DNA from: Minisyncoccota bacterium | GTDB lineage: Bacteria > Patescibacteriota > Minisyncoccia > Phycocordibacterales > UBA2100 | Reading direction: 5' to 3' | DNA length: 64,000 bases | Assembly: GCA_031291875.1 (NCBI GenBank) | Contig: JARLIE010000040.1 | Coordinates: 3,011 to 67,010 of the forward strand | In this document: one piece after another, positions 13,142-56,423 of the stretch | Layout of the letters: each line of letters starts with the position of its first letter | Position numbering within the stretch: the stretch's first letter is position 1 | The notes under the pieces: generated by a model | What the model saw: the letters and a program-made list of their open reading frames with translations, nothing else | Told to the model about the DNA's origin: nothing | Database searches by the model: none | Position numbers and translations under genes: made by a program

Positions 13142-13171
13142 AAAAAAAGTGTACCACTCTTGCAAGAAAAA

Positions 13172-24725: not shown

Positions 24726-26615
24726 GTGAAATACCTCGACGGCCTCAATGAACGCCAAAAAGAAGCTGCAAGTAGCATCGATGGTCCCTTACTGATTGTT
24801 GCTGGCGCTGGCGCTGGTAAAACCAAAACGATTACGCATCGTATCGCACATCTTATAGATGTCGGGGTCCCCGCACATGCGATAGTGGCGGTTACTTTTA
24901 CCAATAAAGCCGCTGGCGAGATGCGCGAACGCGTCCGATCCTTGGTCCCTCCGGGAAGAGGGGTTCCGCTGGTAACAACCTTTCATAGTCTGGGTGTTCG
25001 GCTCCTACGTGAATTCCATGAAGCAGCTCGATTGCCGCGGAGCTTTACGATCTGGGATCGGGATGACTCAATGCGGGCCCTAAAGCGAATCGTGGAAAGT
25101 GTTAATTCGGACCTACCGCCTCGAAGTGCGCTTTCCGTGATCTCAAGACAAAAAGGGGACGGTGTTTCTTTGAAAGAGTATGCGGCCTCGGCAAGCGATT
25201 ATCGTGCACAACAGGTCGCGCGCATTTGGGAAAAGTACGATGCCGAACTCAAAGAAGAGGGGGCGCTCGACTTTGACGACCTGCTCTTGAAAACACTCGA
25301 GCTGCTTCGTACTTCTCCTGAGGTGAGGACACTTCTCCAGAACCGCTGGCAGTACATCACCATCGATGAGTATCAAGATACCAACAAGTCTCAATATGAG
25401 ATCGCTCGCATTCTCGCTGGTGAAAAAAGGAACATTTGCGTCGTCGGCGATATTGATCAAAACATCTATAGCTGGCGCGGAGCGCAGATCGATCACCTGC
25501 TCGATTTCGAAAAAAACTTTCCCGGTACCAAAGTGGTTCTGCTTGAACAAAATTATCGCTCGACCCGCACCATTCTTGCTGCCGCAAATTCAATTATTCA
25601 GAAGAATCGTCGACGAGTCCCTAAAAATCTTTTTACCGACAATCCGGTAGGGGAAGCGATCCAGACGTTTGGCGCACGAAACGATATCGAAGAGGCGTGG
25701 TTTGTGGCAGATCGGACAGCGCAAATGATCGAACAAGGGGTACCTCCAAAGGAAATCGCCGTATTATATAGAGAGAATTTCCAATCGCGTGCCTTGGAAG
25801 AAGCGATGCTTGCGGCTGGAATTCCTTACCGCGTGCTGGGTACGAGATTCTTTGATCGCAAAGAAGTGAAAGATGTACTCTCGTATTTGCGCGCTGCGAT
25901 GAATCCGAAGAGTAAGGTCGACATGGGGCGTATAGTCGCGGTACCGTCACGAGGCATCGGAAAAGTGACTCTCGAAAAGATCCTTGAGGGTAAAGATAAC
26001 GAACTTTCCGGCGCGGCGAAATCAAAAGTATTGTCGTTTAGGACATCGCTCACAAAGATCAAGCACGCGATTGAAAACCTTCCGTGTTCGGAGGCTGTCG
26101 CGTACGCTGCGGAAGAAAGCGGCATAGATGCGATGTTAAAAAATCAGGGCGATGAGGGTAAAGAGCGGCTCGATAACGTTCGAGAGCTCGTGAATTTCGC
26201 GACCCGTTATGACGATTTTCCTCCCTTTGAGGGGATCGAGCGACTCTTGGAAGAGGCGGCCTTGCAGAGCGATCAGGATCAGCTCGCGCACGATGTACGA
26301 AATTCAGTTGCTCTCATGACGGTGCATGCCTCGAAGGGACTTGAATTCAATACGGTATTCATAACGGGACTTGAGCAAGGTCTATTTCCATCTGAGCGCG
26401 AGGGAGGCGGCGAACGAGACCCGGAAGAAGAGCGACGATTGTTTTATGTTGCGATCACGCGAGCAAAATCACGAGTATTCCTTTGTTATGCGAGAGAACG
26501 CTTGCGATGGGGTTCGCGCGAGTATACGCTTCCTTCCGAATTCCTCAGTGAGATCGACGATCGGCTTTTACAGCCAGCCGGTTTCGATGATGGCGAACAG
26601 ACGATACATATATGA
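24726..26615 (+). CDS. ATP-dependent DNA helicase UvrD/PcrA
   Basis: LNERQKEAA...AGAGAGKTKTITHRIAHL Walker A and SF1 helicase motifs throughout. I placed the start at GTG 24726 (VKYLDGLNERQ), where N-terminal homology begins; the upstream part of the 24582 ORF has no homology. Confidence 0.8.
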   Translation: MKYLDGLNERQKEAASSIDGPLLIVAGAGAGKTKTITHRIAHLIDVGVPAHAIVAVTFTNKAAGEMRERVRSLVPPGRGVPLVTTFHSLGVRLLREFHEAARLPRSFTIWDRDDSMRALKRIVESVNSDLPPRSALSVISRQKGDGVSLKEYAASASDYRAQQVARIWEKYDAELKEEGALDFDDLLLKTLELLRTSPEVRTLLQNRWQYITIDEYQDTNKSQYEIARILAGEKRNICVVGDIDQNIYSWRGAQIDHLLDFEKNFPGTKVVLLEQNYRSTRTILAAANSIIQKNRRRVPKNLFTDNPVGEAIQTFGARNDIEEAWFVADRTAQMIEQGVPPKEIAVLYRENFQSRALEEAMLAAGIPYRVLGTRFFDRKEVKDVLSYLRAAMNPKSKVDMGRIVAVPSRGIGKVTLEKILEGKDNELSGAAKSKVLSFRTSLTKIKHAIENLPCSEAVAYAAEESGIDAMLKNQGDEGKERLDNVRELVNFATRYDDFPPFEGIERLLEEAALQSDQDQLAHDVRNSVALMTVHASKGLEFNTVFITGLEQGLFPSEREGGGERDPEEERRLFYVAITRAKSRVFLCYARERLRWGSREYTLPSEFLSEIDDRLLQPAGFDDGEQTIHI

Positions 26616-27406
26616 AGCACCGGCGCGGAGCAAGACTCGGACAGCATTTTCTGACCGGAACTTGGGCTGCTGAAAAACTCGTTGAGTCTGCGCTGATAAC
26701 GTCGCAAGATACCGTCCTCGAGATCGGGCCGGGAAAGGGCGCGCTCACGGGTGAAATCCTTAAAACTGGCGCACGCGTTGTTGCAATCGAGAAAGATGAT
26801 GCATTACCCGAACAACTTCGTTCAACGTTCCGTTCTGAAATTGATGCGGGACGACTGCAGGTAATCGAAGGGGACGTTCGAGATTTTGATCCTGAGCAGT
26901 GCGAGCCGCTCGCTAAAGGATATATTCTCGCCGCAAACATTCCGTACTACATAACCGGCGAGATCATTCGTCAGTTTCTTACTTCATCGCGTCAGCCGAG
27001 CACGATGGCTTTATTGATCCAAAAGGAAGTGGCTGACCGAATTCTCGCGAGAGATGGCAAGGAAAGTATTCTTTCGCTGTCGGTCAAAGCATACGGCGTA
27101 CCCGAAATTGCCGCGAAGGTTTCAAAAGGGAACTTTACTCCGCCGCCGCAGGTCGATTCCGCGATCCTGGTCGTGCGAACTATTTCAAAAGATTTATTTG
27201 ATCAGATTAGCGAGGAGCATTTCTTTCGCGTCGTGCGAACCGGCTTCTCCTCGAAGAGGAAATTCCTTGCCAGCAACCTATCGAATGAATTTGAACGCTC
27301 GACTGTTGTATCCGCTCTTCAGTCCTGTGGTTTATCTGAAAAAGTTCGATCAGAAGACGTTGCACTCGAGCAATGGAAACAAATCGCCTTAAGCTTATTG
27401 CGATGA
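26612..27406 (+). CDS. rsmA: 16S rRNA (adenine1518/1519-N6)-dimethyltransferase
   Basis: LGQHFL...VLEIGPGKGALT...NIPYYIT KsgA motifs. ATGA overlap with the uvrD stop. Confidence 0.85.
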   Translation: MKHRRGARLGQHFLTGTWAAEKLVESALITSQDTVLEIGPGKGALTGEILKTGARVVAIEKDDALPEQLRSTFRSEIDAGRLQVIEGDVRDFDPEQCEPLAKGYILAANIPYYITGEIIRQFLTSSRQPSTMALLIQKEVADRILARDGKESILSLSVKAYGVPEIAAKVSKGNFTPPPQVDSAILVVRTISKDLFDQISEEHFFRVVRTGFSSKRKFLASNLSNEFERSTVVSALQSCGLSEKVRSEDVALEQWKQIALSLLR

Positions 27407-27712
27407 ACCCATCATCGTAATCGCGATTCCGGTGTATACGATGATCGGCTCGATGGAAACGAGGCAGTAGTAGGGTGGGCTGGCGAGCCCTAAGAGCCAT
27501 TGGCCAGAGTGTGATGGGGGACCGAACTCGTAAGTAACCGTTGAGGGAGTCCACACAAATTGACCGCCACGCGGCGGCCCGACATTGGCCCAGATGGCGT
27601 CGTTGTAACAAAAAATCACCTGTCCTATCTGACCGCCGAAGGGAAACGCGAACGTGGTCGTCGGAAACGTGAGTGCGATCAGCGCAAATGTCGCAAGACC
27701 GCGCAGTTTCAT
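27395..27712 (-). CDS. Small secreted hypothetical protein
   Basis: 105 aa with a signal peptide (MKLRGLATFALIALTFPTTTFA), then Pro/Gly/Trp-rich mature part. No homology recognised. Confidence 0.4.
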   Translation of the reverse strand: MKLRGLATFALIALTFPTTTFAFPFGGQIGQVIFCYNDAIWANVGPPRGGQFVWTPSTVTYEFGPPSHSGQWLLGLASPPYYCLVSIEPIIVYTGIAITMMGSSQ

Positions 27713-27759
27713 GCCTCAATCGTAGCATACCGGTCAAAAGCGAGTGGTATAGTTTTCAC

Positions 27760-28671
27760 ATGAATTGGGTACAGATGCACCCCTACAGCGCTACACTTTT
27801 GCTGGTTCTGCTCTTACTACTTGGAGGCGCTGGCTTAGTAACGAGTCGCGCTCCAGTGAACCCGACCGCGCAAAGCCTGGAAACGTGGGGAGGTGGCGCA
27901 TTGACTCCCAGCTATCAGGCCGTAGCGTCTGCGCAATCGCCCCAACAGATTGTTCAGGCTGTCGTACAAAACCAAGGGCCATCGACCCTTTCATTGCCAC
28001 CGCTTGCCACCTCAAGCCCAACTACTACACAATCGACTTCTCCTGGTTCCTTCGATTACATTGCATTTTTGGCTCAGTTAAGCGGTAATACCACTGTTTC
28101 CGCTTCGAGCTCTAAAGGAGAAACCGCTGCGCAGGCTACGGCTTTGGCATACCAATACATTCCGACCGGGCTGGTCGCGACTACCGCTGTAGCAAAAAAA
28201 CCAATGACGGCGGCTCAGCAAACACTGCACGATTATGGAAACGAGGTTGGCGGCGAGATTCAAGGGTTTGAAAACCTTCACACAAATGAAGCACAGATAC
28301 TGAAAGACCAGGCCGAAGATCGTACGAATACGGCAAAGGCGGCAGCTGTGGCAGCCCTCGGACAAGGTTTCATCGGGGTTGGAACCTATCTACAGCAAAT
28401 GCAGGATGTGCCGAGCGTTGCCACTTCGCTCCATAGCGCGCTTGCAAAGAGCTATCTCGACATAGGCACGAAGCTTCAGGCAGTAGCGCAAGCCCAGAGC
28501 GATGGCGCATTTATACAGGCGATCGAAAACTACGACACGTCTGCGAACACTTTCGTACACAACTATGGAGCCCTAGCGCAATTCTTTTCTGAACAAGGGG
28601 TGACGTTTTCGCCGCAAGATCCGGGTAGTATTTTTTCTTTCACTCAAACGAGTGGGGCGGGAGCGCTTTAA
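27760..28671 (+). CDS. Secreted hypothetical protein (first gene of T4SS-like block)
   Basis: Signal peptide (MNWVQMHPYSATLLLVLLLLLGGAGLVTSRA). Mature part is Ala/Gln/Thr-rich with predicted helices. Confidence 0.55.
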   Translation: MNWVQMHPYSATLLLVLLLLLGGAGLVTSRAPVNPTAQSLETWGGGALTPSYQAVASAQSPQQIVQAVVQNQGPSTLSLPPLATSSPTTTQSTSPGSFDYIAFLAQLSGNTTVSASSSKGETAAQATALAYQYIPTGLVATTAVAKKPMTAAQQTLHDYGNEVGGEIQGFENLHTNEAQILKDQAEDRTNTAKAAAVAALGQGFIGVGTYLQQMQDVPSVATSLHSALAKSYLDIGTKLQAVAQAQSDGAFIQAIENYDTSANTFVHNYGALAQFFSEQGVTFSPQDPGSIFSFTQTSGAGAL

Positions 28672-28720
28672 TCCTGCGTGATATCCCAAAAACCCTTACA
28701 TTTCCTCGTTCTTCGGTTTT

Positions 28721-29539
28721 TTGCAGTGCTATACTTTACATGTGGAAAACCCGCTCGGCAGGGACGTTTCGCATATCAAAACGACCGCAGTTCTTGCGGT
28801 ATCCATTCTCGTCGGCGTTTTTCTCTGGCAAGCCACGCAATCATTAAACGGAAAGCCTGCTTCTAGCTCAAATGAGGCGCTTGTCGCAGCCGATCAAAAC
28901 ACAAACGGGGCGCAAAACACCACGGTTCCGACAATCACTACGTCATCGGCAACGAACACTGATCCGATCACCGCTGTTTCCGATGAAGCTGTTGGCGAAT
29001 TAGTCGGCGCGTATGCTGGCTTACAGCAGCAGGGCTCATACAGCTCAACCACAGGAGCCGCAATCGCGAGTTCGATCGGCATGGGCCTGCAAGTGCCAAC
29101 TACTTATTCGCCAATTAGCGCGACCGCTATAAAAACGAGCTCTGACACCTCTTATCAAGCCATGATGCAATATCGAAGCAACTTGCAAACGACGCTCAAG
29201 CCACTCTTAAAAAATACAACTCCTGAATACGTGCTCTTCGGCATGTACGTGCAAACAAAACAGCAAAAGTACTTGGATCAACTACTGGCGGCCGCAGGAA
29301 ATTACGCCGCAGCCGCATCTTCGACGCTCACTCTTACCGTTCCCGCAGACGCGGTGCAGGTCCAACTTGGCTTGGTGAACTCGATGAATGAATTCGCTAC
29401 AACTCTGAACAACATGACAGCGCACGCGAGTGATCCGATCGCCTCAAGCGTGCTACTTGAAAACTACAACAATGCGGAAAACGATGTATTGGGCGCGTTC
29501 CAAGCGCTCGTCACCTATGAACAAAGCAAAACGAAATAA
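28721..29539 (+). CDS. Membrane-anchored/secreted hypothetical protein
   Basis: N-terminal TM (TAVLAVSILVGVFLW), then Ser/Thr/Ala/Gln-rich. Start is TTG 28721 or GTG 28742. Confidence 0.5.
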   Translation: MQCYTLHVENPLGRDVSHIKTTAVLAVSILVGVFLWQATQSLNGKPASSSNEALVAADQNTNGAQNTTVPTITTSSATNTDPITAVSDEAVGELVGAYAGLQQQGSYSSTTGAAIASSIGMGLQVPTTYSPISATAIKTSSDTSYQAMMQYRSNLQTTLKPLLKNTTPEYVLFGMYVQTKQQKYLDQLLAAAGNYAAAASSTLTLTVPADAVQVQLGLVNSMNEFATTLNNMTAHASDPIASSVLLENYNNAENDVLGAFQALVTYEQSKTK

Positions 29540-31217
29540 TATATTTTTGTTGGCGCTTTTTGTCGCGCTTCTCCCTGCTATTTCTTTTGCCGATTCGAAT
29601 CAAACGGTAGCCGTACCGCAGGGGTTCTCTGGCATTTTCACTTGCAACCAAAACGGCGCGAACGCACTGTCCGTCGGAGCGCTCGGCGCAACCGGGGGAG
29701 TATATGTGCCGGTCGCCGACGCAACGGTAGAACTCAATACGGGAACCATCGTCTACAAAGAATGTATTTTGCGGGAGGTTGTGGACGCTGAACGCGAATC
29801 CGGAACTGCCGGTTTAGTACAAGTCGGAACGAACAATATTTTGACGGGCCGAAATGGCTCCCCATATTTCGTGAAGCAACAAGGCCCCGAAACCGTACAG
29901 GTGAGCACGAACGCCATCCAATCAATTGTACAAAACGGATTGTCCGCACTCGATCCCAATATCCAACAGCAGGTCAAAAGCGCAATCGCACAGGGATACG
30001 CCAAAGCGACCTATAATGCGCCGAGCGCACTAACGTGTCCGTATGCAGGCGCAACAAGTGCGTTTAGCAATCCAAACGCACAATTTTCTTGGAACAATAT
30101 ATTAGCCGTTGCCTCGCCATGTAATCCGATCGTCGGTTACATCGACGCCAACAATCTTGCGAACGCATATGCGGCACAGGAACAAAACTGTCTGCAAAAT
30201 ATCTTGCAGTGGGGCGGCGGTTTCTACGCGGTCACAACCGGCAGCGGTGGACCTTGCGAGCAACAAATCGTTACGCCCTCTTACAATGTCGCAAATTCTT
30301 ATTCGACGCTCCTGAACAGCGGCTTCAACCAGCTACAAAGCGCCAACGATATCGGACAAATGGTCGGTGCTCTTTTTGCGGGGATCGACACACAGGTTCT
30401 CTCAGGAACCGGCGGCGGCATCAGCGGACTCTCGCAGCCGGTTGGAAGCTCGCCTTCGTATTTGCAAAACGTCGTCAATCAGGAAAATCAAAACTTGCAA
30501 ACCCAAATCGCAAATACCGCACTCGTAAACCTGCAGGCCTCACTTCAAACGGAGCAGGCCTACTACAACATCATGAGCTCGATCGCCGGCACACTTGAAG
30601 GCACGATCTCCTCATTGAGGAGTTCAGAAAATCAATGCTGGACGCAGGTAGTACAAGCGGTTTGCTCGGGACCGGTTGCAGCCAATGGAACGTGCACCGA
30701 GAAGGCGGGGCAGTGCACCGACAACGCTGATGGAACCCAAACTTGCCCGACGGGTGCCACTCTTCACGTTGCAACATCGACGGCGTTTTCTCAGGCGGTC
30801 GTCAATTCGCAAATTTCATCACTCGCCTCAACTACGGCGAACAATTTGCAAATCTCCCAGCAAGCGCTCGGCTTAATCAACCAACTGATTCAAAATGTTT
30901 CGGGCAGTTCCGCTGATGCGCAGGCGCTCGCCATCACACAGCTCAACACCTTGATCAGCAACAACGAATTGCACACCCCGGCTGACATCACTACCGCTCA
31001 AAGCCAGCAACAAGCGGTTCAGAACGCTATGCAAACACTCGCTCAAAATACCCCGAGTCTTTGGGCAGGAACCGATCCTAACAACAGCTCAAGTACGAAT
31101 ATCCCATGGAACGGCAGTACGGGAGCAACCATTACCGCGACTGACCCAGGCGTCGGTTGGTGCAATTTCAAGAACCAAACCACGCTGCAAGCGTGGATTA
31201 AGAACTGGGGAGGATGA
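29517..31217 (+). CDS. Large secreted hypothetical protein (Asn/Gln/Ala/Gly-rich)
   Basis: 566 aa with a signal peptide (MNKAKRNNIFLLALFVALLPAISFA). ATG at 29517 overlaps the previous gene by 23 nt. Several Cys residues. Confidence 0.6.
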   Translation: MNKAKRNNIFLLALFVALLPAISFADSNQTVAVPQGFSGIFTCNQNGANALSVGALGATGGVYVPVADATVELNTGTIVYKECILREVVDAERESGTAGLVQVGTNNILTGRNGSPYFVKQQGPETVQVSTNAIQSIVQNGLSALDPNIQQQVKSAIAQGYAKATYNAPSALTCPYAGATSAFSNPNAQFSWNNILAVASPCNPIVGYIDANNLANAYAAQEQNCLQNILQWGGGFYAVTTGSGGPCEQQIVTPSYNVANSYSTLLNSGFNQLQSANDIGQMVGALFAGIDTQVLSGTGGGISGLSQPVGSSPSYLQNVVNQENQNLQTQIANTALVNLQASLQTEQAYYNIMSSIAGTLEGTISSLRSSENQCWTQVVQAVCSGPVAANGTCTEKAGQCTDNADGTQTCPTGATLHVATSTAFSQAVVNSQISSLASTTANNLQISQQALGLINQLIQNVSGSSADAQALAITQLNTLISNNELHTPADITTAQSQQQAVQNAMQTLAQNTPSLWAGTDPNNSSSTNIPWNGSTGATITATDPGVGWCNFKNQTTLQAWIKNWGG

Positions 31218-31218
31218 T

Positions 31219-33552
31219 ATGAACTACGCGACTACCTATAAAAAAATAGTTCTCGGCTTTACGCTCTTCTTGGTTTTCGCAGGTATTTCATTTTATTCTC
31301 CGGCTATCGCGCGCGCGGACTCCACCAATCCGTGCGGACCTTCGTACACAGTTACCGGCCCTGACGCCAATCAGGACTACACATGTACGCAAGGCAACAG
31401 CTCGATCGTTGTAAATGCGTCAGGACAACCGGTCAGCGGTGGAACCTCGGCGGGAGCTAGCGTGAACGCAAACAGTCAATCGACATCCGTCAACACGGCC
31501 TGTAGCGGTCTATATGCGTTTTTTTACGATCCAGTAACCTGTGTCGGCAGAAGCGCCGCCACCTTTTTGGGAACAGCGCTGATCTGGATATCTTCTTGGA
31601 TACTCACGATTGCCGGCCTCCTCTTTAACTGGGTGATCACGAACACGATTCTACAATTCGGAAACGTCGTTAGCTCAAGCGTACTCACCGCGATCAATCT
31701 CGCGTGGAGCGTCTTCCGTGACATCTCCAACATCGTTATCATCGGCATGTTTACATTCATCGCCATCATGACCATTTTAGGCAGTACCGATTATGGCGCG
31801 AAGAAAATGATCTCTCGCGTACTCATTGTTGCAGTGCTGATCAATTTCAGCTTACTTTTCACCAAAATAATCATCGACGCATCCAACTTCACGGCGATCC
31901 AATTCCTTAATGCAGCTGCGAGCAATACAGCGTGCACAGGCTGCACCCAACTTAATCAAACTTCTCCTTCGGGCGATTCTGGTTCAACGGGGCAAACCGC
32001 GGGTATCGCGGGCGCCTTTATGCAATACGCCGGAGCAAACTCACTCGGCGATACCTACGGCGCACTCACTGCCGTAGCCAATGATCCTCAAAATGGGGGA
32101 TGGTATGCCCTCATTTACGGCGTTCTTATAAGCATCCTTGAAATCGTGGCAGCGCTGGTACTTTTTTATGGTGCCTTCATGCTTATCGCCCGGGCTATTT
32201 TGATGATCTTCTTAATGATCACCTCATCGATCGCTTTTGCGAGCTACTTGGTGCCCTCACTTTCCAATAGTTACGGGTGGAGTGCGTGGTGGAGCACCTT
32301 ATTTCGAAACGCTTTGTTCGCACCATTTCTCGCCATTTTGCTGTGGGTGACATTGACCGTCGCTCAAGCCTACAATGGTGCAGCAGGCGGGAGTCTCGGA
32401 CAGCTCGTGACCAATCCGACAGGATCGTCGTTAAATGTTGCCGCTCTCTTTGGGTACGTGCTGGTCATTGGTCTACTCTTCCTTTCTATCCGAATCGCAT
32501 CGAGTTTCTCGACACATGTAGGAGGCTTAGGTGTCGGTCAGGATATTTGGTCGCGATTCGCTGAAAATGCTTCGAAGACTGGTTCGGGAGTTTGGAGCAC
32601 AATCAGACCAAGACCGCTCGCGCAATGGGCGTCTAATAGGCAACAATCGAGTGCGGCCGAAGCCAATGAGGCGCGATTAAATGCCGCAAAAGCTCGCTCT
32701 AGCGGTAATTTTAATGACGCTCTGAAGTTCGATAAGCTTGCCGCGCAGAAATCGCGCACTGCGAATCGCTTGGGCAATTTGGCTACAGCTTCAACGGTCC
32801 TGGGCGCGCCGAAGAAGGTCGCGAGCCAGGAGGCGCAAAAGGCCTTACCGCGAGAAGAAGCGAGAAAGGAAGTTGCCTCAGCGGATGATATTCGTAAGTT
32901 GGTGGACGATTCGAGCAAGAACATGCAAGCGCTTACGGCGCAGATCGAGAAAGAAGTTCGAAGCAATGAATCGCTACAGGAGGAGCACACGAAAAACATG
33001 GAAGAAGCCACCAGGACGGCGTCGGAACAAAACGCGAAAGCCTTGAAGCCTATCGAGGAGCGAATCAAGAAACTCAACGATGATATGTCACGAGGAGGTA
33101 TCGACGACTCTCACAAACAAGAGCTCCAGAAACAACTTCTTGAATCCGAAGAATCTCGCAAGAGCGAGTTGCGACACCAAGACGAGCGTCTCAAACGCGC
33201 GCACCAAACCGCCATGTTAAAAACCGCAGGTAGCGACCTGGCAAGTAAAGAACTCAAAGAGGTGGCCGAGAGATTCAAGCAAGAACAAGAACAGGGCGAC
33301 AATGTATCCTTAACTATTCAAAAAACGCAGGAGGTTTCGAGTAAAACGCCGGGTCTTCCGCCGTCAGTCTCAATCCGCTCTGGTGGCTCCGGCCAGTCTA
33401 CGTCGAGCGGACCGCCGCGTCTCTCTCCGCCTTTGGCAGCTAACGACGATGTCGCAAAGACTCTCCGCTCGCCCGGAACGAGCATTCGCAAGATGATTAG
33501 CGGCCCGAATCCCAATGAGCAACGCAATCCAGAGGGTGGTTTGACTCACTAA
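31219..33552 (+). CDS. VirB6/TrbL-like polytopic membrane protein with long charged C-terminal tail
   Basis: 777 aa: signal peptide, about 6-7 predicted TM helices between about aa 105-420, then about 360 aa of Lys/Glu/Arg-rich predicted coiled coil. Its position in a VirB4-containing operon supports the VirB6-like call. Confidence 0.55.
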   Translation: MNYATTYKKIVLGFTLFLVFAGISFYSPAIARADSTNPCGPSYTVTGPDANQDYTCTQGNSSIVVNASGQPVSGGTSAGASVNANSQSTSVNTACSGLYAFFYDPVTCVGRSAATFLGTALIWISSWILTIAGLLFNWVITNTILQFGNVVSSSVLTAINLAWSVFRDISNIVIIGMFTFIAIMTILGSTDYGAKKMISRVLIVAVLINFSLLFTKIIIDASNFTAIQFLNAAASNTACTGCTQLNQTSPSGDSGSTGQTAGIAGAFMQYAGANSLGDTYGALTAVANDPQNGGWYALIYGVLISILEIVAALVLFYGAFMLIARAILMIFLMITSSIAFASYLVPSLSNSYGWSAWWSTLFRNALFAPFLAILLWVTLTVAQAYNGAAGGSLGQLVTNPTGSSLNVAALFGYVLVIGLLFLSIRIASSFSTHVGGLGVGQDIWSRFAENASKTGSGVWSTIRPRPLAQWASNRQQSSAAEANEARLNAAKARSSGNFNDALKFDKLAAQKSRTANRLGNLATASTVLGAPKKVASQEAQKALPREEARKEVASADDIRKLVDDSSKNMQALTAQIEKEVRSNESLQEEHTKNMEEATRTASEQNAKALKPIEERIKKLNDDMSRGGIDDSHKQELQKQLLESEESRKSELRHQDERLKRAHQTAMLKTAGSDLASKELKEVAERFKQEQEQGDNVSLTIQKTQEVSSKTPGLPPSVSIRSGGSGQSTSSGPPRLSPPLAANDDVAKTLRSPGTSIRKMISGPNPNEQRNPEGGLTH

Positions 33553-33554
33553 GT

Positions 33555-34097
33555 ATGACGGACCAAAACCTAGAACAACAGCTGAAAGAGCGCTTCGCGC
33601 AACTTCCGAAGGTTGTTCAAGAAGCCATAACGTCAGCCGACGTCCAAAAGCGCATGCGTGCGTTGGCCGATACGCAAAAATTGCATCTCGATCAGTGGGA
33701 AGCACTCGAAAACGAGGTGATGCTAGCGCTCCTTGGTTTCCAGCCGGTTCAAGATCTGCAGATAAATATTCAAAAGCAGGTCGGCGTAAGCGAAGATAGT
33801 GCCAAAGCGCTCGCGAGCGAGGTATCTAAAATTGTATTCGAGCCGATCAGGGGAGAGTTGGAGCGTCAGTTACAGCACCCGGACGCTAAAGCAGAAGCTT
33901 TGAGCGGCGTTGAGGAGGCCGGAAAACAAGCACTGCAGACAGAAAAGGCCCCAGCTGTTGCCCCGGCAACACCACCTGCAGCTCCGACGGAAGAAAAGGC
34001 AACTCGAGCACCTGTTTCTGAAAGTTACAAAGTTGGTCAACTTTCTACCGAGCGCAAAGAGGTACATGAAGATCCTTATCGCGAACCCCCAGTTTGA
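33555..34097 (+). CDS. Hypothetical acidic cytoplasmic protein (T4SS block)
   Basis: 180 aa with no TM. Tightly packed, with only a 2-nt gap to the upstream gene. Confidence 0.5.
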   Translation: MTDQNLEQQLKERFAQLPKVVQEAITSADVQKRMRALADTQKLHLDQWEALENEVMLALLGFQPVQDLQINIQKQVGVSEDSAKALASEVSKIVFEPIRGELERQLQHPDAKAEALSGVEEAGKQALQTEKAPAVAPATPPAAPTEEKATRAPVSESYKVGQLSTERKEVHEDPYREPPV

Positions 34098-34152
34098 TAC
34101 AGCTACGCCCCGCATTGCGGGGCGTAGCTTTTCGTACTGATATAATAGATGA

Positions 34153-34638
34153 ATGCAGTTTCAGGTTCCTCAATTCATTGAAGTCGAGGACAAGATCTTC
34201 GGTCCGCTCACGTTCAAACAATTTGTGTATCTTATCGGCGGAGCCGGAGCTTCTTACATTGCCTGGAGGCTTTTGCCGCTTTTCATCGCAGGCCCAATCA
34301 TTCTCGCGATTGCCGGCGGCGCGGCTTCTCTCGCGTTTCTTGAGTACAACGGTCGACCATTCATAATTTCGGTAGAGAATGCCTTCTATTTTTTGGTTCA
34401 CCCGAAACTCTATCTATGGAACAATGAGCGCAGGGCCAGAAAGCCCGTAGAACAGAAGACCCAAGACCTTGCAAAAGGGGCAGTCTATATTCCTAAGCTT
34501 TCTGATAGCAGATTGCACGAGCTTTCGTGGTCACTCGACATCAATGAGCGTGTCGCCGCCGGCATTAACGAAGACGAGGAGCGCGTTGGCGGCGTCGTCG
34601 CGCCCGTGAGAACCGCGAGAGAAGCGCTTGTTCGTTAA
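34153..34638 (+). CDS. PrgI/VirB3-like small membrane protein
   Basis: IEVEDKIFGPLTFKQFVYLIGGAGASYIAW followed by a second TM helix. This resembles the PrgI-family (Gram-positive VirB3 analog) N-terminal motif, and it sits immediately upstream of VirB4. Confidence 0.55.
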   Translation: MQFQVPQFIEVEDKIFGPLTFKQFVYLIGGAGASYIAWRLLPLFIAGPIILAIAGGAASLAFLEYNGRPFIISVENAFYFLVHPKLYLWNNERRARKPVEQKTQDLAKGAVYIPKLSDSRLHELSWSLDINERVAAGINEDEERVGGVVAPVRTAREALVR

Positions 34639-34644
34639 CACTCT

Positions 34645-35304
34645 ATGCCTACTTCTTCCTCAAATTCTTCGAACACGCGATCAACCCAAGATTTTGTCCC
34701 TGTAGCGGAGGTACGCGACGGCATCATCGTACTTAAGGATGGTTCGCTCCGCGCGGTGCTTCTCGCTTCTTCAATCAACTTCGCGCTCAAATCCGAAGAC
34801 GAGCAAACAGCATTTATCGTACAGTTCCAAAACTTCCTCAATTCGCTCGACTTTTCCGTACAGATATTCGTTCAGTCTCGTATGCTCGATATTCGTCCCT
34901 ACATCGCCACACTTGAGGCGCAATTTAAACAGCAGCTCGACGATCTCATGCGCATCCAGATTCGCGAATACATCGAGTTCATCAAAAGTTTCACCGAAGC
35001 GGCTAACATTATGACGAAGAACTTCTTCGTAGTCGTTCCGTACTCTTCGGTTTCGGTGAGTACAAGCAAGATCTCCGGCATTCTTCCGTTTGGTTCCAAA
35101 AAAACAGATCAAGCGGCGGCGAATAAATCATTCGAAGAGCAGGTGACGCAGCTCGAACAGCGCATCTCTATCGTGCAGCAGGGGTTGGTACGAACCGGCG
35201 TTCGAACCGTCCAACTCGGCACCGAGGAGGCAATCGAGTTACTCTATAAGATGTTTAACCCCGGCGAAGAAGGGAAGCCGATGGTTTTGCAGCAAGATCA
35301 ATAA
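34645..35304 (+). CDS. VirB4 N-terminal segment (CagE/TrbE/VirB4-like), ends at an in-frame TAA
   Basis: DGIIVLKDGSLRAVLLASSINFALKSEDEQTAFIVQFQNFLNSLDFSVQIFVQSRMLD matches the conserved start of the VirB4 N-terminal domain. It is in the same frame as the next ORF, separated by TAA plus one codon. Confidence 0.6.
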   Translation: MPTSSSNSSNTRSTQDFVPVAEVRDGIIVLKDGSLRAVLLASSINFALKSEDEQTAFIVQFQNFLNSLDFSVQIFVQSRMLDIRPYIATLEAQFKQQLDDLMRIQIREYIEFIKSFTEAANIMTKNFFVVVPYSSVSVSTSKISGILPFGSKKTDQAAANKSFEEQVTQLEQRISIVQQGLVRTGVRTVQLGTEEAIELLYKMFNPGEEGKPMVLQQDQ

Positions 35305-35307
35305 TCT

Positions 35308-37416
35308 ATGGCACTTACAGATTACCTGCCGTTTGGAAAAAAGAAGGACTCCTCCCCGGATGTGCTTCCTGTTTTGCCCGCTGAAATCTACCAAACGGGC
35401 GTACTCGACCTGCAAGATGTTATCGCCCCGCACGCGCTCAAGGTCTCGCCGAAAGAAATCGATCTCGGAGAGAAAATCGCCCGTACCTTCTTCGTGATTT
35501 CGTATCCACGATTCCTAACGACGGGATGGTTCGCGCCAATCATCAACATGGACAAGGTGTTGGATATTTCCATTTTCATTCACCCGATGGATACCAATGA
35601 AATGCTTCGCAAATTCCAAAAGAAGGTGGCGGAGGTACAATCGCAAATCGCGACGCGCGAAGAGAAGGGGATGGTGCGTGATCCGATGCTCGACACCGCC
35701 TATTCCGACCTGGAACAGCTTCGTGATTCACTCCAGCAGGCACAGGAACGCATCTTCGAAGTGGGGCTGTACCTCACCATTTATGGCTCTACACGTGAAG
35801 AAATCGACAAGGTCGAATCGGAGGTACGCTCGGTGCTCGAATCCCGTCTCGTCTATATTCGTCCGGCGCTTTTCCAACAAGAGGGCGGCTTCCGTTCAGT
35901 CTTACCGCTTGCAACGGACGAGCTTGGCGTACATACCAAGCTTAATTCCGCACCGCTTTCCTCGATATTTCCGTTCATCTCCTTCGACCTTACCTCGGAT
36001 CGAGGCATTTTGTATGGCATCAACCGCCACAATTCCTCACTAATCCTCTTCGATCGTTTCTCGCTCGAAAACTACAACTCAGTAACGTTCGCCAAGTCCG
36101 GTTCCGGCAAATCATACACAACCAAACTTGAGATTTTGCGTTCGCTTATGTTCGATACCGAGGTCATCGTTATCGACCCTGAGCGCGAATATGAATATCT
36201 GGCCGAAACGGTTGGCGGTCGCTATTTCAATATTTCTCTTTCATCCGAGCACCACATCAATCCGTTCGATCTTCCGATCCCTCGCGAAGACGAAGCCCCG
36301 TCAGATGTATTGCGCAACAACATCATTACCTTGGTAGGTCTTTTCCGCATCATGCTCGGCGGATTAACTCCAGAAGAAGACGCCATTATCGACAAGGCAA
36401 TCACTGAAACCTACGCGCTTAAGGACATCACCCCGGACGCAAATTTCGCACAGGTCGAGCCTCCGCTTCTTTCCGACTTTGAACTCGTACTCTCGGGCAT
36501 GGAGGGAAGCGAATCGCTCGTGCAGCGTCTGAGTAAATACACCAAAGGAACCTGGTCCGGCTTTATGAACCGTCCGACCAATGTCGACATGAACAAAAAG
36601 CTTGTCGTCTTTTCGGTGCGCGACATGGAAGACGACCTCAAACCGGTCGCTATGTATATTATTACGCACCACATTTGGAACACGGTCCGTAAAGAACTTC
36701 GCAAGCGCCTGTTGGTTATCGATGAGGCGTGGTGGATGATGCGCTCAGAAGACACAGCGTCGTTCCTTTTCGGTATCGCGAAACGTGGTCGTAAGTACTA
36801 TCTCGGTATCTCCACCATTACACAGGACGTTTCCGACTTTTTGAATTCTCCTTATGGCGTGCCGATGATCACCAACTCCTCGATCCAGATTTTGCTGCGT
36901 CAATCGCCGACGTCCGTCGACCTTGTGCAGCAAACATTTAAACTTTCGGATGAAGAAAAATATCTCCTGCTTGAATCCGACGTAGGGGAGGGCATCTTCT
37001 TCGCAGGACTCAAACACGTCGCAATCAAGGTTATTGCCTCGTATACCGAAGACCAAATTATCACCTCCGACCCCTCGCAAATTCTTGCCATTAAAAAAGC
37101 GAAACAGGATCTCGAGCTCTCCAACGAACCTCCTGCCGAAAATGCTGCGCAATCACTAGCTGCACAAGCGCCAGTCGTGGCAAGCGTCCCGCCTGAGGTG
37201 CCTGCAATCACCGGGAACGCTAGTGCCCAAGTTCCTCCACCCGTCCAACCTGCCCCCGCGCCCGTGCCGCCTCCCGTGACACCGGTGGTGTCAGCTGCGA
37301 TTACCGCGCCTGCTGCACCGCTTCCACAAGCCGCGCCAGCCCCTGTTGCCGCGCCTATTCCAGCACCCGCCCCAGCACCGACTCCTGCGGCCGCTCCTGA
37401 GGCGCTGGGTGTATGA
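35308..37416 (+). CDS. VirB4/TraC/TrbE-family type IV secretion ATPase (main part)
   Basis: Walker A (FAKSGSGKSYT) and a VirB4-type Walker B (RLLVIDEAWWMM). Also has the ISYPRFLTTGWFAPII mid-domain motif. A Pro/Ala-rich C-terminal tail spans about 37100 to 37416. Confidence 0.9.
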   Translation: MALTDYLPFGKKKDSSPDVLPVLPAEIYQTGVLDLQDVIAPHALKVSPKEIDLGEKIARTFFVISYPRFLTTGWFAPIINMDKVLDISIFIHPMDTNEMLRKFQKKVAEVQSQIATREEKGMVRDPMLDTAYSDLEQLRDSLQQAQERIFEVGLYLTIYGSTREEIDKVESEVRSVLESRLVYIRPALFQQEGGFRSVLPLATDELGVHTKLNSAPLSSIFPFISFDLTSDRGILYGINRHNSSLILFDRFSLENYNSVTFAKSGSGKSYTTKLEILRSLMFDTEVIVIDPEREYEYLAETVGGRYFNISLSSEHHINPFDLPIPREDEAPSDVLRNNIITLVGLFRIMLGGLTPEEDAIIDKAITETYALKDITPDANFAQVEPPLLSDFELVLSGMEGSESLVQRLSKYTKGTWSGFMNRPTNVDMNKKLVVFSVRDMEDDLKPVAMYIITHHIWNTVRKELRKRLLVIDEAWWMMRSEDTASFLFGIAKRGRKYYLGISTITQDVSDFLNSPYGVPMITNSSIQILLRQSPTSVDLVQQTFKLSDEEKYLLLESDVGEGIFFAGLKHVAIKVIASYTEDQIITSDPSQILAIKKAKQDLELSNEPPAENAAQSLAAQAPVVASVPPEVPAITGNASAQVPPPVQPAPAPVPPPVTPVVSAAITAPAAPLPQAAPAPVAAPIPAPAPAPTPAAAPEALGV

Positions 37417-37721
37417 ACGACACCGAGCCTACACTGTCACTCACGAGCAGTATCCTCCTAATCGTCATCGGACTGATAGCTGATATTGCGAAAGCGGTGC
37501 TCGACTTCTTTTTTGTCGGTTTTATTTTGGATCCATTCGTAATAACACCCATTACGGCGATTGTTTTCGGGATGATTCTTGATCAGAACGGTATTTCGAT
37601 GTTTTCCGGAAAACGCTGGGTCGCCGGTTGGGTCAATCTTGTTTTCAGCCTTATTCCCGTACTCGACTGGTTGCCCGATTGGACCGCATACGCTGTATAT
37701 TTGGCCATTAAATATCGGTAG
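37413..37721 (+). CDS. Small hydrophobic membrane protein (pilin-like candidate)
   Basis: 102 aa with 3 hydrophobic segments. ATGA overlap with the VirB4 stop, suggesting translational coupling. Confidence 0.5.
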   Translation: MNDTEPTLSLTSSILLIVIGLIADIAKAVLDFFFVGFILDPFVITPITAIVFGMILDQNGISMFSGKRWVAGWVNLVFSLIPVLDWLPDWTAYAVYLAIKYR

Positions 37722-37750
37722 CGGCTCCATTGTCACGGTATAATGAATTG

Positions 37751-38770
37751 ATGCAGCGTAAGCTCGTCGCGCTCGTTTTTATAGGCACGATTTTTTTTGC
37801 GCTTCCTGTACTCGCACAATCGAATTCGATTGGCACAAGTGCCCTCACAATATCCGCAGCGCCAGCGTACCCGAGCCCCAACACGACTGTGACGCTGACC
37901 GCTGAAAGCCCGCTTCTAGACCTTCAAAACAGCACGATTACTTGGGTAGTAAACGGCGCCACGGTGGGAACGGGTATTTCTACCAAGGTACAGCTCGGCG
38001 CGGTCGGAAAAGAAACCGACGTGAGCGTCTCGGTTTCCGGTCCAAGTGGCAGTGATTCAGCTTCGCTCGCGCTCGTACCGACATCCATCGACCTTTTATG
38101 GGAGGGGGACTCTTATGTTCCTCCATTTTATAAAGGTCGCGCGGTGCCCGGTTCCAACTCTTCAATCCGGGTCCTTGCCATTCCGCACTTCATAACTACA
38201 AGCGGGAAGGGGGTCGCCTCTTCCAATATTCAGTTTACCTGGAGCGTAAACGGCGCAGTTGATCGAGCCCAATCAGGCGTCGGAGAGTCTTCAGCCATCT
38301 TCCCGGCCGCCGTGTTATATGGGAACGACACCATCGACGTCGTCGCTCGCTCAACCGACGGCTCTCTCTCGGGCGAAGCGTCTATCGTAGTGCCGACACA
38401 GAATCCTCAGTTGGTCCTTTACGAAGACAACCCTTTGTTTGGAATCATGTACCACCGACCGCTCTCTCAATCGAGTACGGCAAACGAATCAGAGACCTCT
38501 TTTGCGGCAGTGCCTTATTTCTCGAATGCAAAGTCGGCAAACGATACATCGCTCGCGTATAATTGGACCGTGAATGGCTCTGCCGTGGCCGCTGATCCTA
38601 AAGATCCTAGCGAAATAACTATCACGACCAAGTCGGCGGGAATCGCGAATATAGCGCTCTCCATCGTAAATGCATTCGATCCATTCTTCTCTGCGTCCGG
38701 TTCGTGGCAAGTAAGCTTCACGGGAGCTTCTGGAACAGGAAGCGATCAATTCCACTCTTCTTCGCAATAG
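37751..38770 (+). CDS. Secreted hypothetical protein (beta-rich, Ig-like repeats suspected)
   Basis: Signal peptide (MQRKLVALVFIGTIFFALPVLAQS). Repeated roughly 90-aa segments with similar V/S/G/T patterns. Confidence 0.55.
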   Translation: MQRKLVALVFIGTIFFALPVLAQSNSIGTSALTISAAPAYPSPNTTVTLTAESPLLDLQNSTITWVVNGATVGTGISTKVQLGAVGKETDVSVSVSGPSGSDSASLALVPTSIDLLWEGDSYVPPFYKGRAVPGSNSSIRVLAIPHFITTSGKGVASSNIQFTWSVNGAVDRAQSGVGESSAIFPAAVLYGNDTIDVVARSTDGSLSGEASIVVPTQNPQLVLYEDNPLFGIMYHRPLSQSSTANESETSFAAVPYFSNAKSANDTSLAYNWTVNGSAVAADPKDPSEITITTKSAGIANIALSIVNAFDPFFSASGSWQVSFTGASGTGSDQFHSSSQ

Positions 38771-38771
38771 T

Positions 38772-40013
38772 ATGAGCAAGTACATCAGTCTGATTCGTCT
38801 CGTAGTGGTCGCCCTAGCCGTTGTAATACTCGGAGCACTCCTTGGATGGTACTTCTTCTTGCATGGAAAGACGGCTCAAACGGTAATTCAAAACACCGGA
38901 GCGGGCTATGGCGTAAGCGCTCCCACGTTTCAAGGTTCGACCGGAAGCACCTACGCGAATGTCGTCTCCACTCTAGGAGCAGCACCTGGCTCAGCCACAT
39001 CGACCGCCGCACGATTGTGGGAAGTCTCTGCCGTACCTGTTGCTGGATTTGGCTGGCAAAAAACATCAGCTCCGACGCTAGATTTCGTCGAACGTTCGAG
39101 TGGCTATGTTTTTGAGGCGCAGACTCAAAGCAGAAGCGTCGTGCGACTCACAAACGTACTCAGACCGAAAGTATATGAAGCTTCTATAGCCCTCGACGGC
39201 GGACTTACCGAGCGCAGCATCGATGATAGCGGCGCCCTCATTACGTTTGCCGGCGGCCTAGCGAGCTCATCTCCTTCGGACAATGCATCGTCGACACCTA
39301 TGGATTTGGTCGGTACTGCACTCCAAACGGGAATCAACGCCATCGCTATCGATCCTGTTTCGGATACGTTGTTTTACTTGGTCCCCGGACCATCCGGCGT
39401 CTCCTTAGTTTCAAGCAGTCTCTCCGGTACTAAGCAAAGGCGTATATTCTCCTCGGCTATAGTAGGGTGGAGACTGATTGCCCCGGGAGATGGGACACTT
39501 GTACTGCAACAAAATCCGCTTGATGGCTCTACCGGCTATGCGTATCAGCTCCAAAAAACTGGCACCCTTTCTTTGATTGCACAAGCGCCGGGGCTTACCG
39601 TATTACCGCGAGCATCTTCGTCCGCACTGATTTTTGGCTCTTCTTCGAGCGGTCAGCTTTCGTTGTTCGTTCAGCCAAGCGCTTCAATTTCGCCGGAGCG
39701 TCTCGCTATGCAGACAGTGGCTGATAAATGCGCCTGGGCTCCGGGGGTAAGCCTTATCGCATACTGCGCAGCGCCCCTGAACATACCGTCACAGAATTTC
39801 CTTAATGATTGGTATAAAGGCCTCGTGCACACAAGCGATAAATTCTACGAGATAGACGCGTCGATGGCTTCCAGTACGCTGATCTACGATCCTACGGGCG
39901 ATACCAGCGCGCAATTCGACGTACAAAGCATGTCGGTAGATCCGACAGGTCAATTCCTCGCCTTTATTAATGCCAAGGATCAATCATTGTGGGTCTTGCG
40001 TATCTCCCAATAA
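38772..40013 (+). CDS. Membrane-anchored hypothetical protein with beta-propeller-like C-terminal region
   Basis: N-terminal TM (LIRLVVVALAVVILGALLGWYFF). C-terminal ...DPTGQFLAFINAKDQSLWVL resembles a TolB/WD40-like blade. A VirB8-like role is possible but unproven. Confidence 0.5.
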   Translation: MSKYISLIRLVVVALAVVILGALLGWYFFLHGKTAQTVIQNTGAGYGVSAPTFQGSTGSTYANVVSTLGAAPGSATSTAARLWEVSAVPVAGFGWQKTSAPTLDFVERSSGYVFEAQTQSRSVVRLTNVLRPKVYEASIALDGGLTERSIDDSGALITFAGGLASSSPSDNASSTPMDLVGTALQTGINAIAIDPVSDTLFYLVPGPSGVSLVSSSLSGTKQRRIFSSAIVGWRLIAPGDGTLVLQQNPLDGSTGYAYQLQKTGTLSLIAQAPGLTVLPRASSSALIFGSSSSGQLSLFVQPSASISPERLAMQTVADKCAWAPGVSLIAYCAAPLNIPSQNFLNDWYKGLVHTSDKFYEIDASMASSTLIYDPTGDTSAQFDVQSMSVDPTGQFLAFINAKDQSLWVLRISQ

Positions 40014-40022
40014 TCACGCGTT

Positions 40023-40442
40023 ATGAAAAAGCTATTTAAGAAATTGGATTTCCGTACGCTAGGCCTCCTCTTCCAGGGAACATTCGTACCGCTTTCCGGT
40101 GGTATAAACGGAAGCTCTTCGGGATCGAATCTTGCCGGACCTTTGTCGCAATGGTTTTCAAGTGGAGATCTACCGCAATTCTTCAATGCAACTTTCAATA
40201 TGGCGTTTTCCGCTGGCGCGATTTCGGCAGTGCTGCGCCTTGCCTATGCGGGTTGGCTCTACATGGGAGCACAAGACATGTGGGGATCGAAACAGCGCGC
40301 AAAAGAAATCATCATGGATGCGGTGCTCGGCCTACTCTTACTTATCGGTATTTGGGTAATCCTTCACCAGATCAACCCATGCCTCCTAGACCTGAATATT
40401 CTACAATCGCTCCAAGGAGGGAGTAGCTGTAACGCGTCCTAA
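40023..40442 (+). CDS. Small membrane protein, pilin/VirB2-like candidate
   Basis: 139 aa: N-terminal leader, Gly/Ser-rich segment, then two hydrophobic helices (AGAISAVLRLAYAGWLYMG; AVLGLLLLIGIWVILH). Last gene of the block. Confidence 0.45.
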   Translation: MKKLFKKLDFRTLGLLFQGTFVPLSGGINGSSSGSNLAGPLSQWFSSGDLPQFFNATFNMAFSAGAISAVLRLAYAGWLYMGAQDMWGSKQRAKEIIMDAVLGLLLLIGIWVILHQINPCLLDLNILQSLQGGSSCNAS

Positions 40443-42081: not shown

Positions 42082-42083
42082 CG

Positions 42084-42218: not shown

Positions 42219-42388
42219 GCGCAAACCGTAGCACGTTTTGTTATTGCACACAATATTTGGCACGGTAAAATTTCTATCCCCGAGTTATCCACACCTTTTA
42301 CACACCCGCGGGGTACTTTAGAAAAGTTTTAAGGCGCAAACGCGCACATATAATACGCAAGCTGTTGGCGCATGACGGCACCCCTAAC
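42219..42388. promoter_or_regulatory. oriC part 1 / dnaA promoter region with DnaA box
   Basis: Perfect TTATCCACA at 42285..42293 and TATAAT at 42349..42354. Classic rpmH-dnaA spacer. Confidence 0.7.
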
Positions 42389-56410: not shown

Positions 56411-56423
56411 TACTATTTTCAGT

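Follow-up and report, generated by a model that had tools for sequence, protein, structure and literature searches.

A probable non-conjugative type IV secretion system beside the presumed replication origin of a Paceibacteria/Kaiserbacteria-like genome of the Patescibacteria

What does a block of type IV secretion system (T4SS) genes do beside the presumed replication origin of a Patescibacteria chromosome when neither a relaxase nor a coupling protein accompanies it? The block in question occupies positions 27760-40442 of a 64-kb stretch of contig JARLIE010000040.1; this whole stretch is called the window here, and all positions are window coordinates. An earlier interpretation made from the letters alone (the sequence-only reading) had described a chromosomal, non-conjugative T4SS-like apparatus at the origin, and the T4SS homologues, synteny, composition and lack of a relaxase or att repeats reported below agree with it. 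We put at roughly 85% the probability that the locus is a chromosomal, non-conjugative, origin-proximal T4SS of the Patescibacteria, in a Paceibacteria/Kaiserbacteria-like genome, serving contact-dependent exchange with a host.

ORF (open reading frame) calls fill the block with 12 tightly packed, co-oriented genes on the + strand. The intergenic gaps in gene order are 49, -23, 1, 2, 55, 6, 3, -4, 8, 1 and 9 nt, the same range of -23 to +55 nt that had been noted for this co-oriented block. Thirteen genes had been counted earlier; 12 co-oriented genes are supported, and an extra conserved gene at the border (27395-27712) lies on the opposite strand. Two candidate ORFs for a thirteenth co-oriented gene, at 27560-27763 and 28678-28866, showed weak or no conservation and were rejected. 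Two ATGA overlaps had also been proposed, of which one lies inside the block, between virB4 and gene 9. Promoter and terminator scans across the block gave results at chance level and are uninformative on operon structure.

Five of the 12 genes encode T4SS homologues, gene 4 being a probable one:

31219..33552, + strand: gene 4, extended VirB6-like polytopic membrane protein of 777 aa
34153..34638, + strand: gene 6, small membrane protein of the PrgI/VirB3 family (PF12666, 7.7e-10, 39.6 bits against a cut-off of 27)
34645..35304, + strand: gene 7, TrsD/TraD-like protein, homologous to the N-terminal domain of VirB4 and encoded separately (NCBIfam TrsD, 1.7e-7)
35308..37416, + strand: gene 8, VirB4-family ATPase (Pfam P-loop_TraG, 2.4e-24; AAA_10; DUF87)
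40023..40442, + strand: gene 12, VirB2-like T4SS pilin (PF18895 T4SS_pilin, 0.0024 for the window protein)

VirB4 is thus not the sole T4SS homologue of the block, a finding that would have spoken against a secretion apparatus; it is joined by PrgI, by TrsD, by a pilin of the VirB2-like kind and probably by a VirB6-like fold. The first four belong to a module of conserved order: the VirB6-like protein (gene 4), gene 5, PrgI/VirB3 (gene 6), TrsD (gene 7) and VirB4 (gene 8).

The assignment of gene 8 as a VirB4 ATPase, already made by the sequence-only reading, is borne out by its Pfam match, and the translation has intact Walker A (GSGKS) and Walker B (VIDEAW) motifs. Among solved structures its nearest relative is VirB4 from the monoderm Thermoanaerobacter (PDB 4ag5, 2.2e-40), with R388 TrwK matching at only 2e-8. 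The protein measures 702 aa against an orthologue median of 612 aa; a Pro/Ala-rich, low-complexity C-terminal tail of ~90 residues (37150-37416) is missing from most orthologues. Directly upstream, the PrgI/VirB3-like protein that had been proposed as its partner scores above the Pfam cut-off. A VirB4 with intact Walker motifs and a small membrane partner of the PrgI/VirB3 type are two T4SS traits of the locus.

Gene 7, which stops 3 nt before the virB4 start, aligns with the NCBIfam TrsD model over its full length (residues 9-205 against 10-200 of 201) and with several VirB4 models across their N-terminal ~200 residues at 2.4e-12 to 3.9e-6, all of these NCBIfam scores being below the curated whole-protein cut-offs. 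When the gene 7 profile was aligned by hhalign with the VirB4 profile from the same genomes, the kinship between TrsD and the VirB4 N terminus that the NCBIfam models had recovered was not recovered, and the orthologue profile of gene 7 gave nothing useful against the PDB.

The polytopic nature ascribed to gene 4 is apparent from ~7 hydrophobic segments. Besides ~6 transmembrane helices the protein has a signal peptide, a small ectodomain with Cys and, at the C terminus, a long and charged tail of coiled-coil-like character. It matched no sequence family in Pfam (E up to 5) or NCBIfam (E up to 1), and all 120 homologues listed are unnamed and lack a Pfam domain. At NCBI the window protein is itself annotated as hypothetical (locus tag P4L81_00760). 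PDB matches of its orthologue profile were low-complexity coiled-coil matches to the C-terminal tail and were discarded. Residues 1-470, modelled by AlphaFold with an input of 62 homologues, reached a pLDDT of 79.6. When this model was searched with Foldseek, DotA and several TrwI chains ranked first, TrwI being the best structural match, and none of them reached E 1e-3. The model suggests that gene 4 is probably a VirB6-type protein.

Support for gene 12 as a pilin comes mostly from its orthologues, 20 of 21 of which match PF18895 (best 5.9e-10) and three of which match TrbC/VirB2. Their alignment displays a leader peptide and two hydrophobic helices with a basic loop between them.

Does the machinery for conjugation accompany this apparatus? 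When the large ORFs across the 64 kb were scanned with Pfam, neither a VirD4/TcpA-type coupling protein nor a relaxase was detected, as had been claimed. An ordinary integrative and conjugative element (ICE) is therefore very unlikely. What the scans did detect elsewhere in the window were housekeeping proteins (RNase Y, CCA-adding enzyme, IMPDH, PNPase, PBP1, RuvAB, PolA, a MurE-like protein and others). The earlier claim that the window holds neither an integrase nor an att-like flank stands in its second half, a repeat scan having found no att-like direct repeats bracketing the block. Its first half has to be amended by one gene, which lies among housekeeping neighbours 14.6 kb from the block:

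12233-13165, - strand: XerC/D-like tyrosine recombinase (Phage_integrase, 1.4e-43, and an N-terminal SAM-like domain)

There is no tRNA within 18 kb of the block, the nearest being at window positions 9.2 kb and 59 kb. Thus the features of an ICE or conjugative plasmid were not found here, neither a relaxase with a type IV coupling protein (T4CP) nor an integrase with att or tRNA sites, patchy distribution and atypical composition. What was found are the traits of the T4SS clade of the Patescibacteria: TrsD next to virB4, a VirB2-like pilin near it, no relaxase or coupling protein in its vicinity, and an origin-proximal context.

The block is flanked on both sides by housekeeping genes:

24582-26615: uvrD, left flank, 5' of ksgA (Pfam UvrD-helicase, 4.8e-81)
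26612..27406, + strand: ksgA (rRNA adenine dimethylase), left flank (Pfam RrnaAD, 3e-50)
40453-40920, - strand: jag, right flank (Pfam R3H)
40993-41745, - strand: yidC, right flank (Pfam 60KD_IMP)
41755-42093, - strand: rnpA, right flank (Pfam Ribonuclease_P)
42084-42218, - strand: rpmH, right flank (L34 sequence read in the translation)
42365-43735, + strand: dnaA (Pfam Bac_DnaA, 4.8e-65), with dnaN beyond it

To compare this arrangement among relatives, VirB4 was used as the query and one genome was taken per GTDB species; tblastn confirmed 574 relatives, and the best 80 of these 574 were compared. Metagenome bins are the source of all 80 loci, and most bear the label of a Patescibacteria lineage (Kaiserbacteria, Paceibacterota, Parcubacteria or similar). 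Counts of loci were obtained by blastp of the window proteins against all ORFs of the 80 loci, unless stated otherwise. In most of the 80 the order uvrD-ksgA-[genes 1-12]-jag-yidC-dnaA-dnaN-pbp recurs, with ksgA found in 49 loci and uvrD in 36. Genes 4, 5, 6, 7, 8, 10 and 11 were each recovered in 56-80 of the 80: VirB4 in all 80 (73-95% identity), TrsD in 78 (53-83%), PrgI in 76 and gene 5 in 56. The pilin was detected in 43. Over the same loci, median identity was 78% for VirB4, 62% for the TrsD-like protein, 56% for DnaA, 52% for UvrD and 40% for DnaN, the choice of loci by VirB4 similarity inflating the VirB4 value somewhat. The other block genes are 26-49% identical and the extracytoplasmic components 26-41%. 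This pattern would fit an essential, conserved motor with fast-evolving surface parts.

Synteny and composition point the same way. Housekeeping flanks are shared across most of the 80 species-level genomes, and the block, with a GC content of 0.46-0.53 and a third-position value (GC3) of 0.48-0.59, has the same composition as its flanks, without a break. Because of this recurrent synteny and matching composition, and because relaxase, coupling protein, flanking tRNA and att repeat are all missing, the sequences indicate that the locus is part of the vertically inherited core and not a mobile element such as an ICE.

The jag-yidC-rnpA-rpmH-dnaA flank at the origin had been recognized before and is substantiated by the Pfam matches, the L34 reading and DnaA boxes. 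A box scan of the region to 43848 found perfect or one-mismatch boxes at 42285, 43739, 43788 and 43840, and the cumulative GC skew reaches its minimum at ~43-44 kb. The interval 42285..43848 is probably the replication origin region. The entire 12.7-kb block is transcribed towards this presumed origin, and therefore head-on to the replication fork, an orientation kept in the relatives with the jag-yidC-dnaA flank and unusual for a large, apparently essential gene block.

The remaining seven genes of the block encode lineage-specific proteins, of which all but gene 5 are membrane-anchored or secreted. To our knowledge these accessory proteins have not previously been characterized:

27760..28671, + strand: gene 1, bitopic protein with an N-terminal hydrophobic helix, rich in Q/A/T/S; no Pfam or NCBIfam match
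28721..29539, + strand: gene 2, bitopic paralogue of gene 1; no Pfam or PDB match
29517..31217, + strand: gene 3, secreted 566-aa protein rich in Q/N/A/T, with cysteines that are invariant in the alignment; no Pfam or PDB match
33555..34097, + strand: gene 5, soluble cytoplasmic protein of 180 aa without a hydrophobic segment; no PDB or Pfam match
37413..37721, + strand: gene 9, small membrane protein of 3-4 helices from an undescribed family, with an ATGA overlap with the virB4 stop
37730..38770, + strand: gene 10, signal-anchored extracytoplasmic protein with three immunoglobulin (Ig)-like beta-sandwich repeats of ~100 aa (W-x-V-N-G motif)
38772..40013, + strand: gene 11, bitopic protein in which a short linker connects an N-terminal transmembrane helix to a 7-bladed beta-propeller (AlphaFold)

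Genes 1 and 2 have a common C-terminal domain of ~92 aa (hhalign probability 82%, E 1.1e-5); the start codon of gene 2 is uncertain, TTG at 28721 giving the longest ORF. Both genes and gene 3 are confined to the closest genomes (17, 21 and 30 of the 80 loci, respectively). Gene 5 consists of a conserved N-terminal domain of ~100 aa, a Pro/Ala-rich linker and a C-terminal D-P-Y-R-E motif, in which D173, P174, Y175 and E177 are invariant in the alignment. Placed at the extreme C terminus behind a variable Pro/Ala linker, this DPYRE motif resembles a docking peptide. Searches of Pfam, NCBIfam and PDB profiles recognized no family for genes 1, 2, 3 and 5, the orthologue-profile searches of the PDB for genes 2, 3 and 5 yielding nothing useful. 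Genes 1, 2, 3, 5 and 10 gave no match to VirB8-like (NTF2-fold) proteins by sequence or profile.

Two small pilin-like proteins had been proposed for the block. The one at 40023-40442 is upheld by its orthologues; the other, gene 9 at 37413-37721, belongs to no Pfam family and gave an hhalign probability of <1% against both the gene 12 pilin and the PrgI profile, and was for these reasons dropped as a second pilin. In the gene 9 alignment an Asp of helix 1 is invariant, and the sequence motif E-x-I-P...L-P-x-W is present. An iterated hidden Markov model search placed the family directly 3' of virB4 in 42 of the 80 loci. Its distribution is patchy, and it is missing from that position in most of the closest relatives (loci L001-L007 and L010-L019).

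Orthologues of gene 10, which is present in 78 of the 80 loci, matched weakly and exclusively to Ig-like families (Cadherin-like, PKD_3, Ig_3, BiPBP_C, Invasin_D3), with a PDB match to Hoc at 0.0012 and nothing else of use from the PDB profile search; the gene itself contains an internal DNA repeat with a spacing of 297 nt. The bitopic, beta-propeller-like protein foreseen at 38772-40013 (gene 11; 69 of 80 loci) is confidently modelled by AlphaFold (pLDDT 89.6, pTM 0.82) as an N-terminal helix followed by ~28 strands. Foldseek returned 937 PDB matches at E<=1e-3, all generic propellers (eIF3i, Lp49, RACK1, TolB), and the homologues are unnamed or Paceibacteria proteins only.

Several features outside the block deserve mention alongside it:

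27395..27712, - strand: small secreted protein of 105 aa with a signal peptide and 2 Cys, divergent from gene 1
23243..24376, - strand: M23 peptidase with two LysM domains (Pfam Peptidase_M23, 6.8e-29; LysM, 7.1e-29)

The 105-aa gene lies 47 nt from gene 1, and at least 18 related loci have it in this place, flanked by ksgA and gene 1. With 50-72% identity its product is far better conserved than those of genes 1-3, and it matches no Pfam family. Whether it belongs to the T4SS locus is uncertain.

The M23/LysM hydrolase had been reported nearby on the other strand, and it is indeed encoded there, 3.4 kb upstream of the block. In one of the compared loci (L079), in which genes 1-5 were not detected, an M23/LysM peptidase gene directly adjoins prgI-trsD-virB4. 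This adjacency hints at a cell-wall enzyme of the T4SS, and the peptidase is a possible cell-wall-remodelling partner and VirB1 analogue.

On the far side of the origin, 6 kb beyond dnaN, a PilB/GspE-type ATPase (50868-52580, - strand; T2SSE, 4.3e-114, with an MshEN domain) is probably part of a type IV pilus machinery that also lies near the origin. For four further ORFs, 333-735 aa long, Pfam gave no family at E <= 0.001-0.01: 2080-4287 (-), 8068-9069 (+), 19980-21209 (+) and 56298-58031 (+).

How does the locus compare with systems already described? Wang et al. (2023, Cell) reported a T4SS next to dnaA in Southlakia epibionticum ML1 (SEML1_0006-0019), which was essential for epibiotic growth by transposon sequencing (Tn-seq). 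It was closest to the T4SSs used for conjugation by Gram-positive bacteria, yet had pilins and lacked a recognizable relaxase or coupling protein. Its Table S2 lists lysozyme, a peptidase, VirB4, an uncharacterized protein, PrgI, a large protein, an NTF2-like protein, a VirB6-like protein and six pilins (PMC10633639). Our locus resembles it in its position adjacent to dnaA, in a core order of VirB6-like ... PrgI - TrsD-like - VirB4, in its PF18895 pilins and in the lack of relaxase and coupling protein. In Southlakia, however, six pilin genes precede virB6, there is an NTF2/VirB8-like protein, and lysozyme/CHAP and peptidase genes follow directly downstream of virB4. Here we found a single pilin at the 3' end, no recognized VirB8-like protein and no hydrolase in the block; gene 9, the Ig-repeat protein and the propeller lie 3' of virB4, and three Q/N/A/T-rich proteins are encoded 5' of virB6. 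Essentiality has been demonstrated in Southlakia only.

Such differences lie within the variety of arrangements among classes noted by Quiñonero-Coronel et al. (2025, Microb Genom), whose survey of Patescibacteria described a monophyletic VirB4 clade related to MPF-FATA. TrsD, PrgI, VirB6 and VirB2-like pilins were widespread in it, there were almost no relaxases, and T4CP genes lay mostly far from virB4. The T4SSs of Paceibacteria were found near dnaA, dnaN, ksgA, rnpA and rpmH, and accessory genes were left unannotated (PMC12102498). Nothing essential distinguishes our locus from this Paceibacteria arrangement; what goes beyond it is the partial characterization of the beta-propeller, the three Ig-like repeats, gene 9, the protein with the DPYRE tail and the gene 1/gene 2 paralogues. 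A 2025 review regards these systems as newcomers to the T4SS superfamily and their essentiality as independent of ComEC (PMC12857230). In addition, a 2026 preprint describes tubular connections, possibly T4SS pili, and the acquisition of host RNA in cultivated Microgenomatia.

A further comparison is with the conjugative T4SSs of monoderms of the pGO1/pIP501 type (MPF-FATA). Plasmids of this type carry the gene order trsC-trsD-trsE, and our locus has the equivalent triplet of VirB3-like, TrsD and VirB4 proteins, a VirB4 closest to that of a monoderm and no outer-membrane core components. A stand-alone homologue of the VirB4 N terminus such as gene 7 is likewise known from Gram-positive systems of the pGO1 type. 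The T4SS probably descends from monoderm conjugation machinery of the MPF-FATA type. In contrast to pGO1/pIP501, the locus has no relaxase, no T4CP (TraJ/TrsK), no VirB1-type hydrolase and no recognized VirB8-like proteins, and it is chromosomal and vertically inherited and not part of a plasmid or ICE. It also encodes a VirB2-like pilin, which Gram-positive systems lack (PMC12102498, PMC12857230). With the diderm MPF-T systems (R388 Trw, Agrobacterium VirB) it has VirB4, VirB3, a VirB2-type pilin and probably the VirB6 fold in common. Pfam and NCBIfam recognized no homologue of VirB5 or VirB7-VirB11 in the block, five of whose genes lack a fold assignment; VirD4 was not recognized either, and VirB4 is distant from TrwK.

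Judging from the roles of VirB4, VirB3, VirB6 and VirB2 in characterized T4SSs, a VirB4 hexamer would be anchored by PrgI, probably with the help of TrsD, on a VirB6 platform in the cytoplasmic membrane. VirB4 would then spend ATP to pull pilin from the membrane and polymerize it, the resulting tube crossing the thin wall of the monoderm cell. More tentatively, the Ig-like, propeller and Q/N/A/T-rich proteins (genes 1-3, 10 and 11) may scaffold the tube in the wall or touch the surface of the host, a role that would explain their fast evolution. The published work suggests that such a machine would serve contact-dependent exchange between an ultrasmall bacterium and its host cell, and not conjugation. 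Its most likely use would be access to macromolecules of the host cytoplasm, in particular nucleic acids, with effector delivery as the alternative.

Other explanations can be weighed against this one. That the block is an ICE or its decaying remnant, with relaxase, coupling protein and integrase outside the block or the window, is exceedingly unlikely. Its core genes do derive from monoderm conjugation systems, as the TrsD and VirB4 matches show, T4CP homologues of Patescibacteria are often encoded far from virB4 (PMC12102498), and a tyrosine recombinase is present at 12233-13165. That recombinase, however, has XerC/D architecture and is remote from the block, which itself shows no compositional break and borders on neither a tRNA nor an att repeat. 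The conservation of VirB4 exceeds that of DnaA, only 109 relaxases were found in 103 Patescibacteria genomes (PMC12102498), and the synteny across most of the 80 genomes largely refutes this reading. We also regard it as unlikely that the block is a dedicated DNA-uptake (competence) T4SS, analogous to ComB of Helicobacter pylori, that imports environmental or host DNA for nucleotide salvage. ComB has VirB4, VirB3, VirB6 and a pilin like VirB2 but neither T4CP nor relaxase, and the set found here resembles it. These organisms, moreover, lack nucleotide synthesis. The import of DNA or other macromolecules has been proposed for them (PMC12102498). Yet ComB is a diderm system of the VirB type with VirB7-10, of which VirB7, VirB9 and VirB10 were not detected in the block by Pfam or NCBIfam, and no DNA-binding or nuclease component was recognized in it. 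When comEC was deleted in Southlakia, transformation was abolished and growth was retained, whereas the T4SS is essential (PMC12857230); uptake of DNA via ComEC is thus not the essential role.

The export of effectors into the host bacterium to subdue it, with the products of genes 1-3 or the 105-aa protein as substrates, is doubtful. Wang et al. considered protein export possible given the missing relaxase and coupling protein (PMC10633639), effector translocators without a T4CP exist in Ptl and Brucella VirB (PMC12102498, PMC12857230), and genes 1-3 are fast-evolving and restricted to the closest ~20-30 genomes. All of these candidates, however, carry an N-terminal hydrophobic segment (genes 1 and 2 have an anchor, gene 3 and the 105-aa protein have a signal peptide), so that Sec would export them and they would not be taken up from the cytoplasm by the T4SS. 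Pfam scans revealed neither toxin nor enzyme domains, and no mechanism of T4CP-free substrate recognition is known. An adhesive pilus or attachment organelle that transports nothing seems improbable to us, even though the block encodes a VirB2-like pilin together with Ig-like repeats and a propeller, which are typical adhesin modules, and conjugative pili act mainly as attachment devices (PMC12857230). For adhesion, type IV pili are already present, as the PilB-type ATPase at 50868-52580 indicates, and such pili mediate adhesion in Saccharibacteria (PMC12857230); translocation is also suggested by how extremely VirB4, TrsD and the probable VirB6 channel are conserved. We therefore rank access to host macromolecules first, effector export second and pure adhesion third, and consider conjugation very unlikely.

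Some observations weigh against the favoured reading. No VirB1-type or other cell-wall hydrolase and no VirB8-like protein was recognized in the block, and sequence and profile comparison assigned no fold to genes 1, 2, 3, 5 and 9. The absence of conjugation genes covers the 64-kb window, and a distant T4CP or relaxase may lie elsewhere in the genome. The proposed function is extrapolated from one species of Saccharimonadia and one co-culture of Microgenomatia, and the sequence holds no cue to the direction of transport. A bolder proposal, which we think has little chance of being right, is that the propeller, three-Ig-repeat, gene 9 and DPYRE proteins form an undescribed envelope or host-contact module that replaces the VirB8-like and hydrolase parts found in the T4SSs of other monoderms, and that a tube of a single pilin imports host RNA or nucleotides and exports nothing. 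If true, this would be a T4SS working as a feeding tube.

The T4SS, the absence of conjugation genes from it and its place beside the origin have all been published (PMC10633639, PMC12102498) and are in this sense already known; the residual novelty lies in the unannotated accessory genes only. No new principle emerges from the locus, which is a clean and complete example from the Paceibacteria with a gene-by-gene parts list. To the published picture this list adds structural support for the VirB6 assignment and first folds for two accessory proteins. Patescibacteria account for a large part of bacterial diversity, are devoid of most biosynthesis and spend their lives attached to host cells; the T4SS that they conserve is foremost among the candidates for the device with which they tap the host. 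The parts list given here could guide structural or genetic work once a co-culture of a Paceibacteria species with its host exists.

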